Assembly (NCBI GenBank): GCA_002412795.1
Contig: DHVS01000038.1
Coordinates: 4 to 64,003, forward strand
Direction: 5' to 3'
Source of the DNA: a bacterium UBP2_UBA5202
Lineage (GTDB): Bacteria > Edwardsbacteria > AC1 > EtOH8
DNA length: 64,000 bases
Made by a program: the position numbers and the translations under genes. This document shows positions 16,350 through 52,101 of the stretch, one piece after another (position 1 is the stretch's first letter; the number at the start of each line of letters is the position of its first letter). The notes beneath the pieces are model-generated. The model was not told where the DNA came from, did not search any database, and saw only the letters and a list, made by a program, of their open reading frames with translations.

Positions 16350-17660
16350 TTATGTTTTCCGGTCCACCACCGCCGCGGTCAGCTCGGCCTCGCAGACCAC
16401 CTGGCCGTCCACCAGGGCCTTGCCCTCCATCTTGCAGATGCCCCGCTTGAAGGAGACCAGGTCCAATTCGAACCTCAGCTGGTCCCCGGGCATCACCGGC
16501 TTGCGGAAGCGCACCTTGTCTATGGCCGCAAAGTAAAGCAGTTTCTGGTGGTAGTTCTCCACCGAATGCAGCACCATGAACGCCCCGGTCTGGGCCAGGG
16601 CCTCCACTATCAGCACCCCGGGGAACACCGGGTGGTCCGGGAAATGCCCCTGAAAGAACGGCTCGTTGATGGTGACGTTCTTAAGACCCACCACCCGCTT
16701 GCCCTCCTCCAGCTCCAGGATCCTATCCACCATCAAAAAGGGATAGCGGTGGGGCAGCATCCCGGCGATGGCGTTGATGTCGAACACCGGGCCCTTCTTC
16801 TGGCGCTCCACCTCGTCGTAGACCTTCTTCAGTTCCTGCACCAGCTTCACATTGGAGCGGTGGCCGGATTTGATGGAGATGACGTGGGCCCGCAGCGGCC
16901 GGCCCAGCAGGGTCAGGTCGCCCAGCAGGTCCAGGATCTTGTGCCGCACGAATTCGTCGGGGTAGCGCAAAGGCTCCTTGTTCTCGATCCCCTTTTCCCC
17001 GATCACCACCGCCGACTGCAGGCTGCCGCCCTTGATCAGGCCCTGGGCCCGCAAATGCTCCACGTCCCGGGCCAGGCAGAAGGTGCGGGCATCGGCCAGC
17101 TCCTTGTCAAAGGTCTCCCCGCTGATGGGGAAGGAGGCGTACTGGCTGCGCAGGATATGGTGCTCAAAGTCGATGGTAAAGCTGATCCTCAGCTCATTGC
17201 TGGGGCTGGCCACCAGCTGGACGCTGCCGTCGTTGACCGAGACCACCTTGGGCAGGTCAAAATACTGCCGGGGGGCGTCCAGCTCCACCGTGCCGGCCTT
17301 TTTCAGGATGTCCAAAAAGGGGCGGGAGGAGCCGTCGCCGATGGGCGGCTCGTTGTTGTCCATCTCCACCCGGATGTTGTCTATCTCCAGCGAGGCGATG
17401 GCCGCCAGTACGTGCTCCACGGTGTGGGCCTTCACCATCTGGCCGTTGAAATCCCTGCCCAAAGTGGTGCCCCGGGCGGTCTCCACCACGTACTCGATCA
17501 GGGCCGGGATCTCCGGGCTCTGGGGGATGTCGGTGCGGATGAAGCGGATCCCGGTATCGGCCGGGGCCGGCTTGAAGGTGAGGTTGGTCATGTTGCCGGT
17601 GTGGACCCCGACCCCGGAAAAACGGACCTCGCTGACTATTGTCTTCTGCAGTTTGGGCAT
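16350..17660 (-). CDS. lpxC: Bifunctional UDP-3-O-acyl-GlcNAc deacetylase LpxC / 3-hydroxyacyl-ACP dehydratase FabZ fusion
   Basis: The N-terminal 280 aa resemble LpxC (HTGN..., HTVEH...). The C-terminal 150 aa resemble FabZ (LPHRYPFLMVDRI...GHFP..P.FPGVL). The start is taken at the internal MPKLQKT. Confidence 0.85.
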   Translation of the reverse strand: MPKLQKTIVSEVRFSGVGVHTGNMTNLTFKPAPADTGIRFIRTDIPQSPEIPALIEYVVETARGTTLGRDFNGQMVKAHTVEHVLAAIASLEIDNIRVEMDNNEPPIGDGSSRPFLDILKKAGTVELDAPRQYFDLPKVVSVNDGSVQLVASPSNELRISFTIDFEHHILRSQYASFPISGETFDKELADARTFCLARDVEHLRAQGLIKGGSLQSAVVIGEKGIENKEPLRYPDEFVRHKILDLLGDLTLLGRPLRAHVISIKSGHRSNVKLVQELKKVYDEVERQKKGPVFDINAIAGMLPHRYPFLMVDRILELEEGKRVVGLKNVTINEPFFQGHFPDHPVFPGVLIVEALAQTGAFMVLHSVENYHQKLLYFAAIDKVRFRKPVMPGDQLRFELDLVSFKRGICKMEGKALVDGQVVCEAELTAAVVDRKT

Positions 17661-17726
17661 TAAAAAGCATCTCCTAAAATGGATGGTGTAAATATAATAA
17701 TACCCCAAAAACAGGGGGTTGTCAAA

Positions 17727-18012
17727 TGATTTTAGCATCTGTAATTCAGACAGTGGAGAGCTAATCGGGGCGGATTTGTCCAGAGGCATATATGCCAAGA
17801 ATAGAGCATATGGAAATACCCATTTGCAATTCCAAATTGCCACGAGCTTTAGCTCGTGGGTTAGGTTAGGATCTGGGAAATATCCTCCGGGGTTTTAACC
17901 CCTTTATCCTGGGGCTAAAGCCCAAATATCTGACTTTTTATTGCCACGACCTGAAGGTCGTGGCAATAAAATATATAGATCCCACTGCTGTCTGAATCAC
18001 TATTTTAGCATT
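17727..18012. other. Structured element of about 285 bp bounded by inverted repeats (MITE-like or structured ncRNA) in the lpxC / znuC divergent intergenic region
   Basis: ttttagcat direct repeats plus gtaattcagacagtgg / ccactgctgtctgaatcac inverted repeats enclose at least three internal GC hairpins (ccacgagctttagctcgtgg; gccacgacctgaaggtcgtggc; ggggttttaacccc). Confidence 0.4.
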
Positions 18013-44040: not shown

Positions 44041-44099
44041 CCTTAAGGGAACCAGGTATTTTTCCTGGTTGACATGAGGGCTTATTTGTATTATCCTTA

Positions 44100-44460
44100 T
44101 GGCTCACAATATTAAGGTGGCGCACTAAGGAAACCTCGGTTTTACTCTGTTATGTTCTTTTTCTTGTTTGTGCCGCCAACTAAGAAAAAGAACCAAAAAG
44201 AAAAAAGCTCGTCGCAAAATACTATCCGGGCCACGCTTACGCCAAGGCTTCAGCGGACCCGCGCTGAGCTTCTCGTCGCCGGCGGGCTTGTCTGAACTCG
44301 GGCTTTGCCAGCCCTCAAACATGCAGACAAGCTATTAACCGCCGTCAACTGCGATGCTCACTGATAGTATTTAACGCGACAACCAGGGTTGGTCCCGGGT
44401 GATCAATGGATTACCTGAGATAATTGGATAATCATTTGGTTCATCTATAAAACATAATCA
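44100..44460 (+). other. Unassigned GC-rich structured non-coding region upstream of gatE
   Basis: It carries no ORF of 60 aa or more with coding features. Long-range complementarity is visible (gcttgtctg 44288-44296 with cagacaagc 44326-44334), along with several local hairpins. Confidence 0.25.
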
Positions 44461-44478: not shown

Positions 44479-46446
44479 ATGAGCTCAAAGTTAAATCCGC
44501 AGGACAACTACCGGGCCACCCTGGCCTCCACCGGCTATGTTCCGATCAAACAGGCCACCCAGGCCACCTACGACGCCATCGGCTTCATGTCGGGGCTGGA
44601 GGTGCACCAGCAGCTGCTGACCGACCAGAAGCTGTTCTGCCGCTGTCCGGCCGGGCGCTTCCAGAAGTCAGACGACTACGACGCCGAGATCGTCCGCCAC
44701 ATGCGGCCCACCCTTTCGGAGCTGGGGGAATACGACGGCACCGCTTTGATGGAGTTCCGGACCCGGAAGAACATAGTCTACCGCATCAAGAGCCCCACCG
44801 CCTGCACCTACGAGGTGGACGACACCCCGCCCTTCCCCCTGAACCGTCAGGCGCTGGAGATCGCCATCGAGATCGCCCTGCTTTCCAAGCTGAACCTGGT
44901 GGGCGAGGTCCACATCGCCCGCAAGCAGTACCTGGACGGCAGCATCCCCACCGGGTTCCAACGCACCGCCATCATCGGGGTGGAGGGCTCGATCCCGCTG
45001 AAGCACAAGAAGGTCCGCCTGATCCAGCTGTCGCTGGAGGAGGACTCCTGCCGCGAGGTCTCCGACATCGGCCACCTCCGGATCTACCGCACCGACCGGC
45101 TGGGGATGCCGCTGATAGAGACCGTGACCTATCCCGACATGAAGAACCCGGACGAGGTGAAGGAGGCCTGCGACTACATCCGCTTTTTGAACCGCAGCAC
45201 CGGCAAGGTCCGCACCGGCATCGGGGCGGCCCGCCAGGACGTCAACGTCTCCTGCCGGGGCGGCACCCGGGTGGAGCTGAAGGGCGTCTCCCACACCAAG
45301 TGGATACCGCTTTTGACCCACAATGAATGCTTCCGCCAGTGGGCCCTGCTGAACATCCGTGATCTGCTCAAGAACAAGGTGAAACAGCCCAAGGACTGGA
45401 AGATGGCTTCCGAGCCGCTGAAACCCGTATCCGGAAAGCTGGAGAGCCCCCGGGCCAGGGAGCTTTTCAGCAACGGGAACAAGGTAATGGCGGTGAACCT
45501 GCCGGGGTTCCACGGCATCCTGTCGCATTTCACCCAGCCGGGCAAATGCTTCGCCGATGATTTCTCGGAACGGCTGAAGGTGATCGCCTGCATCGAAAAA
45601 CCGAACATGACCAGCTCCGAGGCGCTGGAGCCGGTGCTTTCGGACAAAGACTGGGACCAGGTCCGGACCCTGCTCCGATCTTCTGACAACGACGCCCAGC
45701 TGGTGTTCTGGGGGCCGGAGGACGACATCAAGACCGCTTTGGAGACCATCGAGGAACGCTGCAAAATGGCCTTTGCCGGGGTTCCCAACGAGACCAGAAA
45801 AACATTCGAGGACGGGAGCACCATCTTCGAGCGGGTGCTGCCCGGGGCCGACCGGATGTACCCCGACACCGATTCCAAGCCCATCCCGCTGGATGATTCC
45901 CGGATCGAGGAGATCAGGAAGGGCGTGCCCACCGAGGTGGCCGACCGCTACCGGCAGTTAAAGGACTGGGGCGTGCCGGAGGATTGCTATACCTACCTCT
46001 TCGTCCGCAACCTGTATCCGGTGATCGAGAAGATAGTCAAAGAGCTGGGGCAGGATCCCAAGACCGTGGGCGGCGTGTTTGGACATCTTTTGAGGAATAT
46101 CGAGGGGCATTACAAAAAATCTCCGGACTTCACTTACGACCGCATCTACGATCTCTATAAATATATAGTTGACGGCAAGCTGGATGGGGAGATAGTCAAA
46201 ACCATGCTGCCGGTGGTCTACCAGTATCCCAAGATGGACTTTGATTCGGTGCTGGTGAACCTTGAATTCAAGCGGTTCTCCAAGGAGGAGATAGTTTCCA
46301 AGATCCAGTTCTTGAAAGACAAATACAAAAGCATCAGGACATCGAAAGATCCACTGGCGGAAAAGCATTGGATAATGGGGCAGTTGAGGAAACCGGCATT
46401 GGGGAACCTTAAGCTGGCCGAACTTTGGAATATGATCAAAGACTAA
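44479..46446 (+). CDS. gatE: Archaeal-type Glu-tRNA(Gln) amidotransferase subunit E (GatE)
   Basis: GLEVHQQL...KLFCRCP N-terminal motif of the GatB/E family. The 655-aa length with an inserted domain matches GatE, and the next gene is the asparaginase-like GatD. Confidence 0.7.
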   Translation: MSSKLNPQDNYRATLASTGYVPIKQATQATYDAIGFMSGLEVHQQLLTDQKLFCRCPAGRFQKSDDYDAEIVRHMRPTLSELGEYDGTALMEFRTRKNIVYRIKSPTACTYEVDDTPPFPLNRQALEIAIEIALLSKLNLVGEVHIARKQYLDGSIPTGFQRTAIIGVEGSIPLKHKKVRLIQLSLEEDSCREVSDIGHLRIYRTDRLGMPLIETVTYPDMKNPDEVKEACDYIRFLNRSTGKVRTGIGAARQDVNVSCRGGTRVELKGVSHTKWIPLLTHNECFRQWALLNIRDLLKNKVKQPKDWKMASEPLKPVSGKLESPRARELFSNGNKVMAVNLPGFHGILSHFTQPGKCFADDFSERLKVIACIEKPNMTSSEALEPVLSDKDWDQVRTLLRSSDNDAQLVFWGPEDDIKTALETIEERCKMAFAGVPNETRKTFEDGSTIFERVLPGADRMYPDTDSKPIPLDDSRIEEIRKGVPTEVADRYRQLKDWGVPEDCYTYLFVRNLYPVIEKIVKELGQDPKTVGGVFGHLLRNIEGHYKKSPDFTYDRIYDLYKYIVDGKLDGEIVKTMLPVVYQYPKMDFDSVLVNLEFKRFSKEEIVSKIQFLKDKYKSIRTSKDPLAEKHWIMGQLRKPALGNLKLAELWNMIKD

Positions 46447-46492
46447 GGCCAATAAAGTAAACCTGAAAACAGCAATTGAGAACCAGACGATA

Positions 46493-47878
46493 ATGAACGA
46501 CGATTTATTCCAAGGCTACAAAGGCGGGGGGCTGGAGGTCCTCAAGAAACACAACGTCCGGGTGTGGGGCCAGGCCGAAGTGCTTACCAGCCGCGGGCCC
46601 TTCAAGGGCACGGTACTGCCCCGGGCCGACCAGGACGACGACCAGCACATAGTGCTGAAGATCGCCACCGGCTACAACGTGGGCATAGACATCAAGACCA
46701 TCACCGGGATGACCGAGACCGGCTACAAGAAAGCCAACTACAAGATCCCGGAGAAGGAGTTCCCCATCACCCCGGGCCTGCCCAAGGTCAAGCTGCTGGG
46801 GACCGGGGGCACCATCGCCAGCCGGCTGGACTACCGCACCGGCGCGGTGATCCCGGCCTTCACTCCGGGCGAGCTTTACGGTGCGGTGCCGGAGCTGGCC
46901 GACATCTGCAACCTGAGCACCGAAAAATTGTTCGCGGTCTTTTCCGAGAACATGGGGCCGGAGCAGTACAAGAAGCTGGCGGTGGCTATCGGCAAGGAGA
47001 TCGAGAACGGGATCGACGGCATCGTGATCGGCCACGGCACCGACACCCTGCACTACACCGCGGCCGCCCTGACCTACATGGTCCAAAACCCCCCGGTACC
47101 GATCGTTTTGGTGGGCTCCCAGCGCTCCTCCGACCGCCCCAGCTCCGATGCCGCCCTGAACCTGATGCATGCCACCACCGCCGCTGGGCACGGGGACATC
47201 GCAGAGGTGATGGTCTGCATGTTCGGCCCCACCTCGGATGAATACGGCTTTTTGCACCGGGGCACCCGGGTCCGCAAGATGCACTCCTCCTACCGTTCCA
47301 CCTTCCGCACCATCGGGGATACCCCGCTGGCCACGGTCACCCGCCAGGGGGTCAAGCCCATCAAGCAGGATTACCATCCCCGGCGCAAGGACCGGAACGT
47401 CAAGATCATGCCCTACTTCGAGGAGAAGGTGGGGATGATCTACTACTATACCAACATGCAGCCGGACATGATAGATTCCATGGTGGACAACGGCTACAAG
47501 GGGATCATCATTATCGGCACCGGATTGGGGCACGTCAACAAGCCGCTGTACCCGGCCATCGAGCGGGCGGTGAAAAAGGGCGTAGCCATTTACATGACGG
47601 TCCAGACCCTGTGGGGCTATGTTCACATGTTCGTCTACGACACCGGCCGCGACCTGATGGCCCAGGGGGTGGTGCCGGCCGAAAACATGCTGCCCGAGGC
47701 GGCCTACATCAAGTTAGGCTGGGCGCTGGGGCAGACCTCGGATCTGGAGAAGGTCCGGGAAATAATGATGACGCCCATCAACGACGAGACCACGCCCCGG
47801 GAACCGTACAACGGGTATTTGATCTACCAGGGCGGGGTGCCCGAGGTGGAGGAGTTCATCAAAAAGGTACACAAGTAA
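46493..47878 (+). CDS. gatD: Archaeal-type Glu-tRNA(Gln) amidotransferase subunit D (GatD), asparaginase fold
   Basis: L-asparaginase motifs (GTGGTIAS, HGTDTL) preceded by the N-terminal extension typical of GatD. Confidence 0.75.
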   Translation: MNDDLFQGYKGGGLEVLKKHNVRVWGQAEVLTSRGPFKGTVLPRADQDDDQHIVLKIATGYNVGIDIKTITGMTETGYKKANYKIPEKEFPITPGLPKVKLLGTGGTIASRLDYRTGAVIPAFTPGELYGAVPELADICNLSTEKLFAVFSENMGPEQYKKLAVAIGKEIENGIDGIVIGHGTDTLHYTAAALTYMVQNPPVPIVLVGSQRSSDRPSSDAALNLMHATTAAGHGDIAEVMVCMFGPTSDEYGFLHRGTRVRKMHSSYRSTFRTIGDTPLATVTRQGVKPIKQDYHPRRKDRNVKIMPYFEEKVGMIYYYTNMQPDMIDSMVDNGYKGIIIIGTGLGHVNKPLYPAIERAVKKGVAIYMTVQTLWGYVHMFVYDTGRDLMAQGVVPAENMLPEAAYIKLGWALGQTSDLEKVREIMMTPINDETTPREPYNGYLIYQGGVPEVEEFIKKVHK

Positions 47879-47900: not shown

Positions 47901-48509
47901 ATGCAAAATACGGAAATGATATTGTTCAAGATTGCTGGTGCAGTGTTAAGCACAGCAGTGATATTCACATTCGGTTATTTAATCAGGAATGATTTCAAAC
48001 ACATGTCAATGATGAGGCCTGAAAAAGATATCCTGATTAAAACAACGCCAGATATGCCTTGGACATATATTATTGTTATTGCTGCTCCTATTCTCTATTT
48101 ATGGTATATAGTTGGACCTTGGGAATATCAATATCTGCTTCTAATTCTCTGCGGGTTCCTAGTTCTGATAACATTATTTGGGTATATCATACTGCGCAAT
48201 ACTAAGAACAGTTTAAACAATAAATACCTCGCATTGTGTTTGCAAAAAGGTGTAACCTTTATTCCCGCTGGACTGAATAGTAAACCAGTGATCAAAGATA
48301 AACCCTGGTGTGATGGACGCTATCAAGACGCGCTATTTGTTGGCACACAAGGGGCAACTGATGATGCTTTTCGGCAATACGAAACAAAGGAAAACAGTCG
48401 ACCGCAGGTTGCCAAAGGCCTTTTACTGGTTATTGGCATATGTATTTTTATGTACATTCTTTGGCTTGTCGCACAAATCCTGGCATTTGGAAAGATACTC
48501 GAAAGGTGA
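47901..48509 (+). CDS. AT-rich hypothetical membrane protein
   Basis: Several predicted TM helices. The gene is low-GC. Confidence 0.4.
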   Translation: MQNTEMILFKIAGAVLSTAVIFTFGYLIRNDFKHMSMMRPEKDILIKTTPDMPWTYIIVIAAPILYLWYIVGPWEYQYLLLILCGFLVLITLFGYIILRNTKNSLNNKYLALCLQKGVTFIPAGLNSKPVIKDKPWCDGRYQDALFVGTQGATDDAFRQYETKENSRPQVAKGLLLVIGICIFMYILWLVAQILAFGKILER

Positions 48510-48598
48510 TATACAAAATATGCTATGAAGCCTCGTTAACACGAGGCTTTTAATTTATTCATCAAAGCTAAAATTCCTAATCAACAATTAATAAAAAC

Positions 48599-50245
48599 AT
48601 GGCAACTCAGAATAGAATCTCATTTATAGTAGACGGCTGGCACCCCTATGCCTGGCTGGCGGCGGCAGGCTTTGCGCTGTACGCCCAGACCCTGTTCTTC
48701 GGGCTTAGCGGCTACGACGACACCCTGCTGATCACCAAACATTTTTACCTGATCAAGGACATCACCAAGGTCCCGGCGGCCTTTCTGAACGACGTGGCCT
48801 GGGGCCAAAGCCAGCAGTTCTACCGGCCGGTGCTGACGCTGTCCTTCATGTTCAATGCCATCCTGGGCGGAAAGAACATCTGGTTCTATCACCTGACCAA
48901 TGTGTTGATGCACCTGGGCTCCATCCTGCTGGTATTCTGGCTGCTCAAAAAACTGACCGGAGGGCGTGGTTCTGCTTTCGTGCTGGCACTGCTCTTTGCC
49001 GTCCACCCGGCCCTGGCTCCGGCGGCGGCCTGGCTGCCGGGGCGCAACGACCCACTGCTGGGGCTTTTCATTTTTAGCTCGCTGGCGGCCCTGGTTCGCT
49101 ACCGGGAAAAGGAGACTTTGGGGTGGTACGCCCTGCATCTGTTCCTGTTCCTGGGCGCACTGTTCACCAAGGAGACCTCGACGGCCATCCCGGCGGTTTT
49201 CATTATGTTCCTTTTACTGGTTTACGGCCAACAGAAGGCAAAACCATACATTATTCTGGCTGCCGGCTGGCTGGCCTGTCTGGCCGGGTATTTCAGCCTA
49301 AGGCTCTCGGTGCTGCCCCGGGTGCCACCGGTGATGAACACCGCTTCCGAGAACGCGCTGGGCCTGCTGGGGTACCTCGGCAAGCTGATATTTCCGGCAA
49401 ACCTCTCAGTGATGCCCCTGCCCCAGGATACCCATTGGTTCTTTGGAACGGCGGCCCTGGGTTTGTTCACCGCCCTGTTCGCGCTGAAAGGCATCCGGAG
49501 CAAGGGGATATTCCTGGCCGGCCTGGTCTGGTTCGGGGTGTTCCTGGTCCCCACCGTCTTCAGGATCACCGATTTTGCCAACATGCTGGAACACAGGCTG
49601 TACGTGCCTTTCCTGGGACTCTTGCTGATCGTTTCCCAGGCGGAGGCGATTTACAGTTATAAAAAAACCTTTTTGTCCTTGGCCGCCGGGCTGTTCATCG
49701 TCTTCAGTTTATTCTCCGTCCGGCACAGCCGGGACTTTAAGGACCCGCTGTCCTTCTGGCAGAACGCGGTTAAGACCTCGCCCCACTGTTCGCTGGCCCA
49801 CCGGTCACTGGGAATGATGTATATTAACCAGAAGGATCCGGGCGGGGCGGCCGCACAGTTCCAGGCGGGTTTAAGATACGACCCCAAAAACCCCGGGCTG
49901 TTGAACGGCCTGGCGCTGTCATATTTGGACATGGGAAAGGTCGAACCTGCCATACAGTTATTCAAGGAAGCGATACAAACAGAGCCAGGCAATCCCTTCA
50001 GCCACGATAATCTGGGGACAGCATGGCTTAGGGCCGGGAACACGGCGGAGGCCGGGAAAGAATACCGGCAGGCGTTCCTGCTGAAACCGGACGACCCGAT
50101 GATAATGGTCAATTTTTCCTATGCCCACTATCTGCTGAAGGATATTGACTCGGCATCTTACTATTACGAACTGGCGTTGAGGAACGGGCTGGTCAGGGAT
50201 GCAGGGATAGAGGGAAGGCTGAAGGGTGCGGGTGTTCTAAAATAA
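48599..50245 (+). CDS. TMTC-like protein (DUF1736 multi-TM domain plus C-terminal TPR repeats), putative protein O-mannosyltransferase-like
   Basis: An N-terminal polytopic domain of about 400 aa followed by TPR motifs (AHRSLGMMYINQKD..., LKPDDP). Confidence 0.6.
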   Translation: MATQNRISFIVDGWHPYAWLAAAGFALYAQTLFFGLSGYDDTLLITKHFYLIKDITKVPAAFLNDVAWGQSQQFYRPVLTLSFMFNAILGGKNIWFYHLTNVLMHLGSILLVFWLLKKLTGGRGSAFVLALLFAVHPALAPAAAWLPGRNDPLLGLFIFSSLAALVRYREKETLGWYALHLFLFLGALFTKETSTAIPAVFIMFLLLVYGQQKAKPYIILAAGWLACLAGYFSLRLSVLPRVPPVMNTASENALGLLGYLGKLIFPANLSVMPLPQDTHWFFGTAALGLFTALFALKGIRSKGIFLAGLVWFGVFLVPTVFRITDFANMLEHRLYVPFLGLLLIVSQAEAIYSYKKTFLSLAAGLFIVFSLFSVRHSRDFKDPLSFWQNAVKTSPHCSLAHRSLGMMYINQKDPGGAAAQFQAGLRYDPKNPGLLNGLALSYLDMGKVEPAIQLFKEAIQTEPGNPFSHDNLGTAWLRAGNTAEAGKEYRQAFLLKPDDPMIMVNFSYAHYLLKDIDSASYYYELALRNGLVRDAGIEGRLKGAGVLK

Positions 50246-50430
50246 ATGATGTCATTAGGCAAAGCCGGTCTGACGACCGGTTTTTTTTATTCCCCCCCCC
50301 AATACCTCTTAAAAATATATTCAATAAATTGCTTGCTTAAAACAGCTTATTGATATAAAATATACTGTTAGACTCCGTAACTCCGCCTGCATAAAAATCC
50401 CAAAATATACCCCAAACAAGGAGGTATCCC

Positions 50431-52101
50431 ATGCCGCCAGCCAGAAAAAAACCGGGGCTTTTGCCGGCCAGGCCCGCCAGGGCCGCGCTGCTGCCCACCG
50501 CCAAGAGCGAGCTCTCCAGCCTTAAGATGAAGCTCAAGGTGCTCCAGCGGGTCAACGAGATCGCCGCCAGCACCTTCGACGTCCAGCCCCTGCTGGACCG
50601 GGCCATGGACCTGGTGACCGAGATCGCCCCCTCGGAAGCCGGGTCGCTGCTGCTGCTGTCCTCCGACCGCAGCTACCTGAAATTCTCCATCGTCAAGGGG
50701 CCGGCCGCCCACAAACTGGAGGGACTGGAGATCCCGGTGGGGCAGGGCATCGCCGGCTGGGTGGCCAAGACCGGGATCCCGCTGACGGTCAATGACGTTC
50801 AGAGCGAGCCCAAGTGGAAGAAGGAGATTGCCGACAACGTGGATTTCCCCACCCGGAGCATCCTCTGCGTCCCCCTGAAATCCAGGGCCGAGGTGATCGG
50901 GGTGGTGGAGCTGATCAACAAGCTGAGGGGCGAGGATTACAACGACGACGACCTGGAGATCATCGAACTATTAGGCGCCCATCTTTCCACCCTGATCGAG
51001 AACAGCCGGCTCTATTCCGAGGCCCGGGAGAAGGTGGAGAGGATCACCGCCATGGCCGAGACCAGCGCCCTGATCTCCTCGTCGCTGGACGTCAAGCGGG
51101 TGCTGGAGACGGTGATGACGGTGGCCAAGGACGTGATCGACGCCGAGGCCTCCTCCATCTTCTTGTACAACGAGGAGAAGAACGACTTCTATTTTGAGAT
51201 AGCCACCGGCGACGCCGGCGATGCGGTCAAGCAGATCCGGGTGCCCTGGGGCAAGGGGATGGTGGGCTGGGCGGCCGAGCACATGCAGACCCTGCTGGTC
51301 CCCGACGTCACCAAGGACCCCCGGTTCTATGCCAAGGTGGACGAGAAATCGAAGTTCCAGACCCGCAACGCCATCACCGTTCCCTTAAAGCCCAAGAACA
51401 AGCTGATCGGGGTGGCCCAGGTGCTCAATAAAAAGGGCGGGCTGTTCACCCGCGAGGATGTGGAGCTGTTCGAGACTTTGGCCCGCCAGGCGGCGGTGGC
51501 CATCGAGAACGCCAGCCTTTACACCGATCTCCAGGAGCTGTTCCTGAACTCCATCCGGACGGTGGTTTCGCTGATCGACGCCAAGGACGACTACACCGCC
51601 GGCCATTCCTCCCGGGTCACCAAGTATTCCATGATGATCGCCGACCAGCTGGGCTTTTCGGCCGAGGACCGCAAGCGGCTGGAGCTGGCGGCCCTGCTGC
51701 ACGACGTGGGCAAGATCGGGATGCCGGATGCCATCCTCAAGAAACCGTCGGGGCTGACCCCCGAGGAATTCGCCATAGTCAAGGACCATCCCAACAAGGG
51801 GGCCGAGGCGCTGGAGCCCATCAAGCAGATGAAGGACATCATCCCCGGGGTGCGCCACCACCACGAGAAGCTGGACGGACGGGGCTACCCGGCCGGGCTG
51901 GCCGGCGACCAGGTGCCGATGGACGCCCAGATCATCTGCGTGGGGGATTCCTACGACGCCATGAACTCCGACCGTCCCTATAGAAAAGGCCTGGGGATGG
52001 AGGAATCGGTCAAACGCCTGCGCCAGGATTCCGGGACCCAGTTCAACCCGGCCCTGGTGGAGGCCTTCGTCAAAGCTTTGGAGAAGGAGGCAAAAAAATG
52101 A
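50431..52101 (+). CDS. Tandem GAF domains fused to an HD-GYP phosphodiesterase
   Basis: HDVGKIG ... HHEKLDGRGYP motifs. There is a strong AAGGAGG RBS. Confidence 0.8.
   Translation: MPPARKKPGLLPARPARAALLPTAKSELSSLKMKLKVLQRVNEIAASTFDVQPLLDRAMDLVTEIAPSEAGSLLLLSSDRSYLKFSIVKGPAAHKLEGLEIPVGQGIAGWVAKTGIPLTVNDVQSEPKWKKEIADNVDFPTRSILCVPLKSRAEVIGVVELINKLRGEDYNDDDLEIIELLGAHLSTLIENSRLYSEAREKVERITAMAETSALISSSLDVKRVLETVMTVAKDVIDAEASSIFLYNEEKNDFYFEIATGDAGDAVKQIRVPWGKGMVGWAAEHMQTLLVPDVTKDPRFYAKVDEKSKFQTRNAITVPLKPKNKLIGVAQVLNKKGGLFTREDVELFETLARQAAVAIENASLYTDLQELFLNSIRTVVSLIDAKDDYTAGHSSRVTKYSMMIADQLGFSAEDRKRLELAALLHDVGKIGMPDAILKKPSGLTPEEFAIVKDHPNKGAEALEPIKQMKDIIPGVRHHHEKLDGRGYPAGLAGDQVPMDAQIICVGDSYDAMNSDRPYRKGLGMEESVKRLRQDSGTQFNPALVEAFVKALEKEAKK

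Follow-up and report, generated by a model that had tools for sequence, protein, structure and literature searches.

A GatDE-type tRNA-dependent amidotransferase gene pair resident in a bacterium that also encodes GlnRS

What is a gatE-gatD gene pair, encoding the two subunits of a tRNA-dependent amidotransferase that reviews assign to archaea only (accessible text of PMC2330236, PMC8007984 and PMC9499178), doing in the genome of a bacterium? The question is raised by a stretch of 64,000 nucleotides (nt), hereafter the window, from UBP2_UBA5202 (GTDB lineage Bacteria; Edwardsbacteria; AC1; EtOH8; assembly GCA_002412795.1, contig DHVS01000038.1, positions 4 to 64,003 of the forward strand). In this window an initial annotation, made from the letters alone, had recognised a GatE-like protein of 655 amino acids (aa) adjacent to a GatD-like protein and had proposed horizontal acquisition and possibly an indirect, archaeal-type pathway to Gln-tRNA. 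As we describe below, the pair is predicted to be a genuine and long-resident GatDE, in a genome that also encodes glutaminyl-tRNA synthetase (GlnRS).

The two genes are neighbours on one strand, in the order E then D and with 46 nt between them, precisely where the initial annotation had placed them (Table 1), and the motifs it had quoted were found again, with GLEVHQQL beginning at GatE residue 39 and FCRCP occupying residues 53-57. GatE passes the cut-offs of two NCBIfam equivalog models, TIGR00134 with 409 bits (cut-off 319.55) and NF003107 only just, with 457.6 bits (cut-off 456), while models for GatB, its bacterial paralogue, reach 114-118 bits against cut-offs of 315-338 (at best 118 versus 338). 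GatD likewise passes the equivalog models NF003217 (497.9 bits, cut-off 310) and TIGR02153 (497.6 bits, cut-off 324). Pfam identifies GatB_N in GatE (155.4 bits) and GatD_N, Asparaginase and Asparaginase_C in GatD (41.9, 193 and 117 bits, respectively), and against known structures GatE residues 31-610 align with PDB 2D6F chain C (E 5.6e-89) and GatD residues 35-443 with PDB 1ZQ1 chain A (E 1.3e-117). Judged by these scores, the pair is a true GatE and GatD, neither a bacterial GatB nor a plain asparaginase, as the initial annotation had held.

Both genes are under purifying selection, with ratios of nonsynonymous to synonymous change (dN/dS) against same-genus orthologues of 0.14-0.16 for gatE and 0.05-0.15 for gatD. 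Taken domain by domain, GatE gives values of 0.03-0.51 in every part, including the helical domain and the tail, the tail region itself lying at 0.12-0.21. We aligned 103 GatE sequences (77 bacterial, 8 Asgard-type and 18 classical archaeal-type) and checked 22 core positions; 21 of these carry one residue throughout, bar one gapped row at two positions, and the remaining position is E in 99 sequences and D in 4. GatD residues T107, T183, D184 and K262, which we take to be the threonine nucleophile and the Thr-Lys-Asp triad, are invariant in all 72 aligned GatD sequences. The nucleophile and triad described in the accessible text of PMC2330236 agree with these conserved positions.

Outside the core, GatE has diverged strongly. 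Its identity to the 18 classical archaeal-type sequences is 0.41 and 0.46 in segments 1 and 2 of the catalytic cradle and falls to 0.20, 0.15 and 0.16 in the inserted domain, the helical domain and the tail, respectively. It also carries an N-terminal extension of ~30 aa that the near bacterial clade shares (99% covered, against 12-23% in the archaeal and Asgard-type sets). GatB_N profile positions 3-276 stretch over GatE residues 38-476, which leaves an insertion of the right size at the right place for the GatE-specific inserted (GAD, or AspRS-like) domain. In a profile-profile comparison, 13 bacterial GatE sequences are colinear with 14 sequences from the classical archaeal part of our trees, of which the sources name 6 as archaeal (probability 100%, 612 columns, 29-644 versus 5-621), and the inserted domain and tail are colinear with their archaeal counterparts. 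The architecture of GatE thus appears to be retained despite the strong divergence of its tRNA-binding domains. Relative to the archaeal GatDE of Methanothermobacter thermautotrophicus (2D6F, with tRNA(Gln)) and Pyrococcus abyssi (1ZQ1), the window's pair shares the same subunits, a colinear domain order and the conserved core. It differs in the ~15% identity of the helical and tail domains, the missing GAD profile match, the N-terminal extra residues, the E-then-D order and the host itself, a bacterium with GlnRS and with a tRNA(Gln) that begins with U1-A72.

Nothing but the family's reputation in reviews suggests that the pair lies on a contig of contaminating archaeal DNA or on a recently acquired foreign island, and we give that explanation next to no credence. 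The window sits on a 201,856-bp contig (C12) of a 2.52-Mb assembly in 42 contigs that is rated 100% complete and 1.32% contaminated. It holds lpxA (341 bits, cut-off 226) and an lpxC-fabZ fusion, by which the initial annotation had rightly recognised the host as bacterial, together with other bacterial genes such as one for an M23 murein-hydrolase-activator-like protein; the scpA of that annotation is present too, as an scpA-like gene whose best score, 258 bits, is under its equivalog cut-offs. Of the 19 species genomes in the phylum, 17 belong to the host's family (host included) and one each to two other families. GatE was found in 17/17 genomes of the host's family (16 above the cut-off, one split) and is absent from both phylum genomes searched outside it. 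The closest relatives of the window's GatE, at 53-94% identity, carry bacterial or unspecific labels, the nearest with names being 'candidate division TA06 bacterium' (94%) and 'Candidatus Edwardsbacteria' (73%). The gene upstream of the pair, encoding a molybdopterin oxidoreductase, is common to two same-genus genomes; in seven genomes from other genera of the family only the gatE-gatD pair recurs within ~8 kb. At four loci from other genera of the family (L121, L122, L123 and L125) the two genes are ~380-500 nt apart, compared with 46 nt in the window. G+C content at third codon positions (GC3) is 0.84 in gatE and 0.89 in gatD, and 0.74-0.89 in neighbouring genes. Given the long contig with its lipid A genes, the presence of the pair in all 17 family genomes, the shared upstream gene and the neighbour-like GC3, contamination and a recent island can be excluded, and gatE-gatD is, on this comparative evidence, long-resident and vertically inherited in the host's family.

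The host is equipped with direct enzymes for both amide aminoacyl-tRNAs. Its genome encodes a full-length GlnRS (695.8 bits, model positions 1-524), asparaginyl-tRNA synthetase (AsnRS, 460 bits), a single, bacterial-type glutamyl-tRNA synthetase (GluRS, 517.5 bits), the asparagine synthetase AsnB (474.9 bits) and one glutamine synthetase; AsnA was not found in the host genome. The GatA model has no match in that genome, and the GatB model matches the gatE locus only, at 84 bits against a cut-off of 314.8, so that the bacterial amidotransferase GatCAB is absent. The genome search that the initial annotation had called for therefore speaks against GatDE as the only route to Gln-tRNA: with GlnRS, AsnRS, AsnB and glutamine synthetase present and GatCAB absent, GatDE is an extra. 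An archaeal-type indirect pathway stands as a possible route in this host, not as a required one. The genes for GluRS and GlnRS, gltX and glnS, are adjacent in the host genome (contig C37, 15154-18381), and they lie no more than a few kb apart on one contig in more than 10 of the 50 GatDE-bearing genomes described next.

The same surplus is found among other carriers. Throughout the host's family, GlnRS and GatDE are both present in 17/17 genomes and GatA in 0/17; one of the two other phylum genomes (G017) has GatCAB, without GlnRS or GatDE. We picked 50 carrier genomes for taxonomic spread from 80 related loci, 34 of them not labelled as Bacteroidales-type metagenome-assembled genomes (MAGs) and 16 from Bacteroidales or Marinilabiliales. 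GlnRS scores above the cut-off in 45, is partial in 3 and is represented in one by a C-terminal fragment only and in one by nothing; AsnRS is above the cut-off in 47 and partial in 2; GatA is above the cut-off in 9, GatCAB being missing in 41. The carriers that lack a full GlnRS match are G065, a complete chromosome that has GatA, G060, which has no GlnRS or GluRS match at all and is probably an incomplete genome, and the three with partial GlnRS. For neither amide aminoacyl-tRNA, then, do these carriers depend on GatDE alone, with hardly an exception. We also considered tRNA-dependent asparagine synthesis as a need that GatDE might serve and looked for carriers without AsnRS, a candidate that was dropped given the 47 of 50 with AsnRS above the cut-off.

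Bacteria with an apparently redundant amidotransferase have precedents, as the accessible text of PMC4206432 lists Deinococcus radiodurans, Thermus thermophilus and Bdellovibrio bacteriovorus with GatCAB alongside GlnRS and AsnRS. Like our host, these three have an amidotransferase beside both direct synthetases; theirs is GatCAB and the host's is GatDE. GatCAB in such bacteria is explained by tRNA-dependent synthesis of asparagine where asparagine synthetase is lacking. The host differs from them in that AsnB is present.

We regard auxiliary amidation of Glu-tRNA(Gln) beside GlnRS as the most likely function of gatE-gatD and hold this reading, which draws on the archaeal enzyme, with moderate confidence. 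The resident pair would form a two-gene operon for a GatDE-type tRNA-dependent amidotransferase. By analogy, GatD would hydrolyse glutamine or asparagine by means of its threonine nucleophile and Thr-Lys-Asp triad and hand the released ammonia to GatE, which would bind the acceptor end of Glu-tRNA(Gln), activate the glutamyl side chain with ATP and amidate it to yield Gln-tRNA(Gln). The Glu-tRNA(Gln) would most likely be formed by the single bacterial GluRS through relaxed specificity and then be converted by GatDE, which would act as a second, non-essential route beside GlnRS; the payoff might be the clearance of mischarged tRNA or the upkeep of Gln-tRNA when free glutamine is low. We infer, rather than observe, what GatDE acts on, what it does for the cell and that GluRS has relaxed specificity.

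How such an enzyme would recognise its tRNA can be approached from the acceptor ends. Both host tRNA-Gln genes (UUG and CUG) have U1-A72 and G73, the UUG isoacceptor also having C2-G71, and the host tRNA-Asn has U1-A72 and G73 as well. Among other GatDE carriers, U1-A72 is present in 16 of the 17 tRNA-Gln genes recovered, recovery being by BLAST with the CUG isoacceptor, which gave matches in 17 of the 50 carrier genomes, with four acceptor ends read by eye. The lone exception is a tRNA-Gln(UUG) with A1-U72 (locus L139, genome G078, contig C13), which sits in an eight-tRNA array without encoded CCA in a Bacteroidetes MAG and looks like part of a mobile-element or phage tRNA cluster. According to the accessible text of PMC2330236, archaeal GatDE identifies its tRNA by A1-U72 and the D-loop, and the pair read by bacterial GatCAB is U1-A72. 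As the host tRNAs have U1-A72 and not A1-U72, the bacterial GatDE must read its tRNA otherwise than the archaeal enzyme does. The diverged helical and tail domains fit such an altered reading, and the diverged tRNA-recognition modules would suit a bacterial tRNA(Gln) with U1-A72 rather than A1-U72.

Recognition through U1-A72 would also open the way to a broader specificity. A bacterial GatDE with GatCAB-like breadth might use the shared U1-A72 pair to amidate Asp-tRNA(Asn) besides, or instead of, Glu-tRNA(Gln), an alternative that we judge improbable. Its appeal lies in the matching U1-A72 and G73 of the host tRNA-Asn, in the use of U1-A72 by bacterial GatCAB for both of its substrates (PMC2330236, accessible text), in the absence of GatCAB from 41 of the 50 carriers and all 17 family genomes, and in the place of the greatest divergence, namely the helical and tail domains, by which archaeal GatDE reads the D-loop and tells tRNA(Gln) and tRNA(Asn) apart. 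However, with AsnRS above the cut-off in 47 of the 50 carriers and in the host, and with AsnB in the host, there is no visible need for such an activity, and archaeal GatDE does not use Asp-tRNA(Asn) according to the same source. The likeness to GatCAB has its limits in any case: the overall reaction is the same, GatB is a paralogue of GatE, and U1-A72 is recognised by GatCAB (PMC2330236, in the accessible text), but GatA has an amidase fold where GatD has an asparaginase fold, and GatDE has no GatC.

The residue signature of GluRS does not help to decide whether Glu-tRNA(Gln) is formed. In the host GluRS it is an Arg that aligns with T. thermophilus R358, a residue which we take to be the mark of a discriminating GluRS; the GluRS of PDB 4GRI, presumably from Borrelia, a GatCAB user, has Arg at the aligned position too, and the test is therefore uninformative.

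Several observations weigh against auxiliary amidation of Glu-tRNA(Gln), and they are best taken together. A1-U72, the first-pair determinant of archaeal GatDE, is absent from the host tRNA-Gln genes. Pfam GAD has no match in the window's GatE even at E up to 10, and GatB_Yqey scores 22.7 bits on its C-terminal tail, under the cut-off of 27. None of the 50 carriers searched for a necessity of GatDE clearly lacks both GlnRS and GatCAB, and the substrate of GatDE cannot be deduced from necessity, because no examined genome needs it. A genome from a sister lineage in the phylum (G018, 87% complete) has GlnRS and neither amidotransferase, so that GlnRS alone may suffice. Finally, no neighbouring gene, tRNA-Gln gene or RNA element ties the operon to glutamine metabolism in the window or the 80 related loci. 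Clustering of 814 flanking open reading frames (ORFs) from these loci and the window (81 sources) gave gatE in 79 sources, gatD in 66 and the next commonest cluster in 8; Pfam searches with 44 of 53 close same-strand neighbours returned unrelated functions, with NUDIX repeated in several Bacteroidales; and none of the 9 tRNA genes in 89 loci (1.14 Mb) is a tRNA-Gln gene.

Another idea is that the pair, with its GatDE chemistry kept but its classical substrate given up, has been recruited outside routine decoding, either to amidate another aminoacyl-tRNA or carboxylate or to supply Gln-tRNA for a non-ribosomal process. Nearly all carriers have GatDE on top of the direct enzymes, and yet it is under purifying selection, a long stem branch of 0.68-0.74 leads to the window's subclade, and the GAD and YqeY profiles are hardly recognisable. 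All GatE domains are conserved and colinear with archaeal GatE, however, and no conserved neighbour points to another pathway, as the low count of the commonest cluster after gatE and gatD illustrates. We think recruitment of this kind quite unlikely and retain auxiliary amidation of Glu-tRNA(Gln) as the preferred function.

To place the pair among its relatives, we scanned one genome per prokaryote species for a sequence pattern and compared the labels of the best 80 loci. At least 598 relatives were found, among 600 matched stretches of species-representative genomes, and no archaeal label occurs among the best 80. The labels there comprise Bacteroidales, Marinilabiliales, Ignavibacteria, Zixibacteria, Aminicenantes, Omnitrophota, Cloacimonadota, WOR-3, Acidobacteriota, Planctomycetota and others, some being merely 'bacterium' or 'metagenome', and cultured Bacteroidota are represented by Marinifilum flexuosum DSM 21950, Perlabentimonas gracilis and Labilibaculum sp. 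K2S. Of the 80 related loci, 68 have a gatD gene 3' of gatE. The other 12 comprise 8 whose sequence stops shortly past gatE and four (L026, L030, L038 and L101) in which >7 kb downstream holds no gatD. The view that GatDE is essentially archaeal-specific, from which the initial annotation had started, thus holds in the reviews but not in the databases, where GatE is already the source name of such proteins.

The origin of this bacterial GatE was addressed with three trees rooted on GatB, one by FastTree (153 rows) and two by IQ-TREE (LG+C20 PMSF, short search; 55 and 64 rows). They cover GatE only, the congruence of GatD resting on gene adjacency; taxon labels are those given by the sources, and 4 of the 22-24 rows called bacterial were assigned from their position in the first tree, which makes this group partly post hoc. 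Bacterial GatE forms one clade in all three trees (support 100, 100 and 97), and a Heimdall/Asgard-labelled group adjoins it (support 94 in FastTree, 96 and 96 in IQ-TREE). This Heimdall/Asgard-type GatE (P0275, ~30 related clusters) is the nearest archaeal group throughout and has 39% identity to the window's GatE; unlike the latter, it keeps clear matches to the GAD and YqeY-like models (41.2 and 83.6 bits). Within the bacterial clade, the window's GatE shares a subclade with sequences from Bacteroidota, Ignavibacteria, Zixibacteria, Aminicenantes, Omnitrophota, Cloacimonadota, Acidobacteriota and WOR-3, and the stem of this subclade is long, at 0.68-0.74 changes per column. Forcing all 36 archaeal rows into one clade costs 3.0 log-likelihood units and is not rejected by the approximately unbiased (AU) test (p = 0.44), so that nesting of bacterial GatE inside the archaea is not established. 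The trees, with Heimdall-type GatE next to the bacterial clade, favour an old transfer from Asgard-like archaea without securing it. The horizontal acquisition proposed at the outset would be ancient at best, the GC3 of the pair being like that of its neighbours.

Two sequences are placed at odds with their labels. In the third tree the bacterial clade has at its base P0399, a GatE labelled 'Thermoplasmata archaeon' (support 100); we doubt this label because its contig, at 5.16 Mb, seems very large for Thermoplasmata. Locus L017 (genome G032, contig C4), filed as bacterial, bears a second kind of GatDE in the order D then E in a genome that also has GatB; its GatE has 33% identity to the window's, scores 558 bits with the archaeal GatE model and branches among the classical archaeal-type sequences, which suggests either a separate transfer or a misbinned contig.

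As the AU test does not reject a bacterial GatE that lies outside all archaeal GatE, early bacterial descent is conceivable. Bacterial GatDE might be an old, distinct subfamily whose inserted, helical and tail modules were rebuilt for bacterial U1-A72 tRNAs and which most carriers retain alongside GlnRS and AsnRS because it does what the direct enzymes cannot, perhaps by converting Glu-tRNA(Gln), and possibly Asp-tRNA(Asn), formed by relaxed synthetases, or by supplying amide aminoacyl-tRNA when glutamine is scarce. We put this forward tentatively, as a doubtful proposal.

The surroundings of the pair in the window are summarised in Table 1. The region upstream of gatE contains 8 promoter-like matches where 3.4 are expected from shuffled sequence, which is weak evidence for a promoter, and terminator-like sites number 2, with 5.6 expected from shuffles. 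Searches of the window with Rfam gave no family at or above its gathering score, and only chance-level matches occur in the gap upstream of gatE. The ORF downstream of gatD has no Pfam family match and contrasts in G+C content with the host genome (0.386 versus 0.549). It may be co-transcribed with gatED and may have been inserted recently, between gatD and the hairpin that resembles a terminator, and it is probably not part of the GatDE enzyme. Elsewhere in the host genome, the sole gene for aspartyl-tRNA synthetase (AspRS) is split over two overlapping frames of 234 and 415 aa (contig C42, ~49352-51092, minus strand; locus L120), with the break at a CCCC run within the conserved stretch ...FYALPQSP...; an assembly or sequencing error in an essential gene is the most likely cause.

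Table 1 Features of the window discussed in the text (positions are those of the window)
Feature	Position	Strand	Remarks
lpxC-fabZ fusion	16350-17843	minus	LpxC 326 bits and FabA-like 131 bits
Sigma-70-like promoter match TTGACA-17-TATCCT	44069..44097	+	In the 546-nt gap upstream of gatE; 10/12 consensus positions
A+T-rich hairpin	44139-44210		In the 546-nt gap upstream of gatE; chance-level microRNA-model matches only, best 30 bits versus gathering score 90
gatE	44479..46446	+	655 aa; predicted kinase/amidotransferase and tRNA-binding subunit with catalytic cradle, inserted domain, helical and tail domains
gatD	46493..47878	+	461 aa; predicted asparaginase-type amidase subunit of GatDE
202-aa predicted membrane ORF	47901..48509	+	23 nt after gatD; G+C 0.386, GC3 0.369
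Terminator-like hairpin followed by T-rich tail	48527..48550	+	3' of the 202-aa ORF; pattern match only

There is nothing exceptional about the pair in the window, which belongs to a large clade of bacterial GatDE already annotated in databases; no paper on bacterial GatDE was found in the literature covered, part of it accessible in excerpt and subscription journals lying outside it. The wider interest therefore attaches to the clade and not to the locus, and concerns its coexistence with GlnRS and AsnRS, the use of tRNAs without the archaeal identity pair, and its origin. Scenarios for LUCA (last universal common ancestor), for how GatDE and archaeal tRNA(Gln) co-evolved and for the lack of GlnRS in archaea have been built on a GatDE confined to archaea (PMC2330236, PMC8007984 and PMC9499178, accessible text). 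If GatDE was present in bacteria early, the published view that they never possessed this enzyme, or have lost it, would have to be revised.

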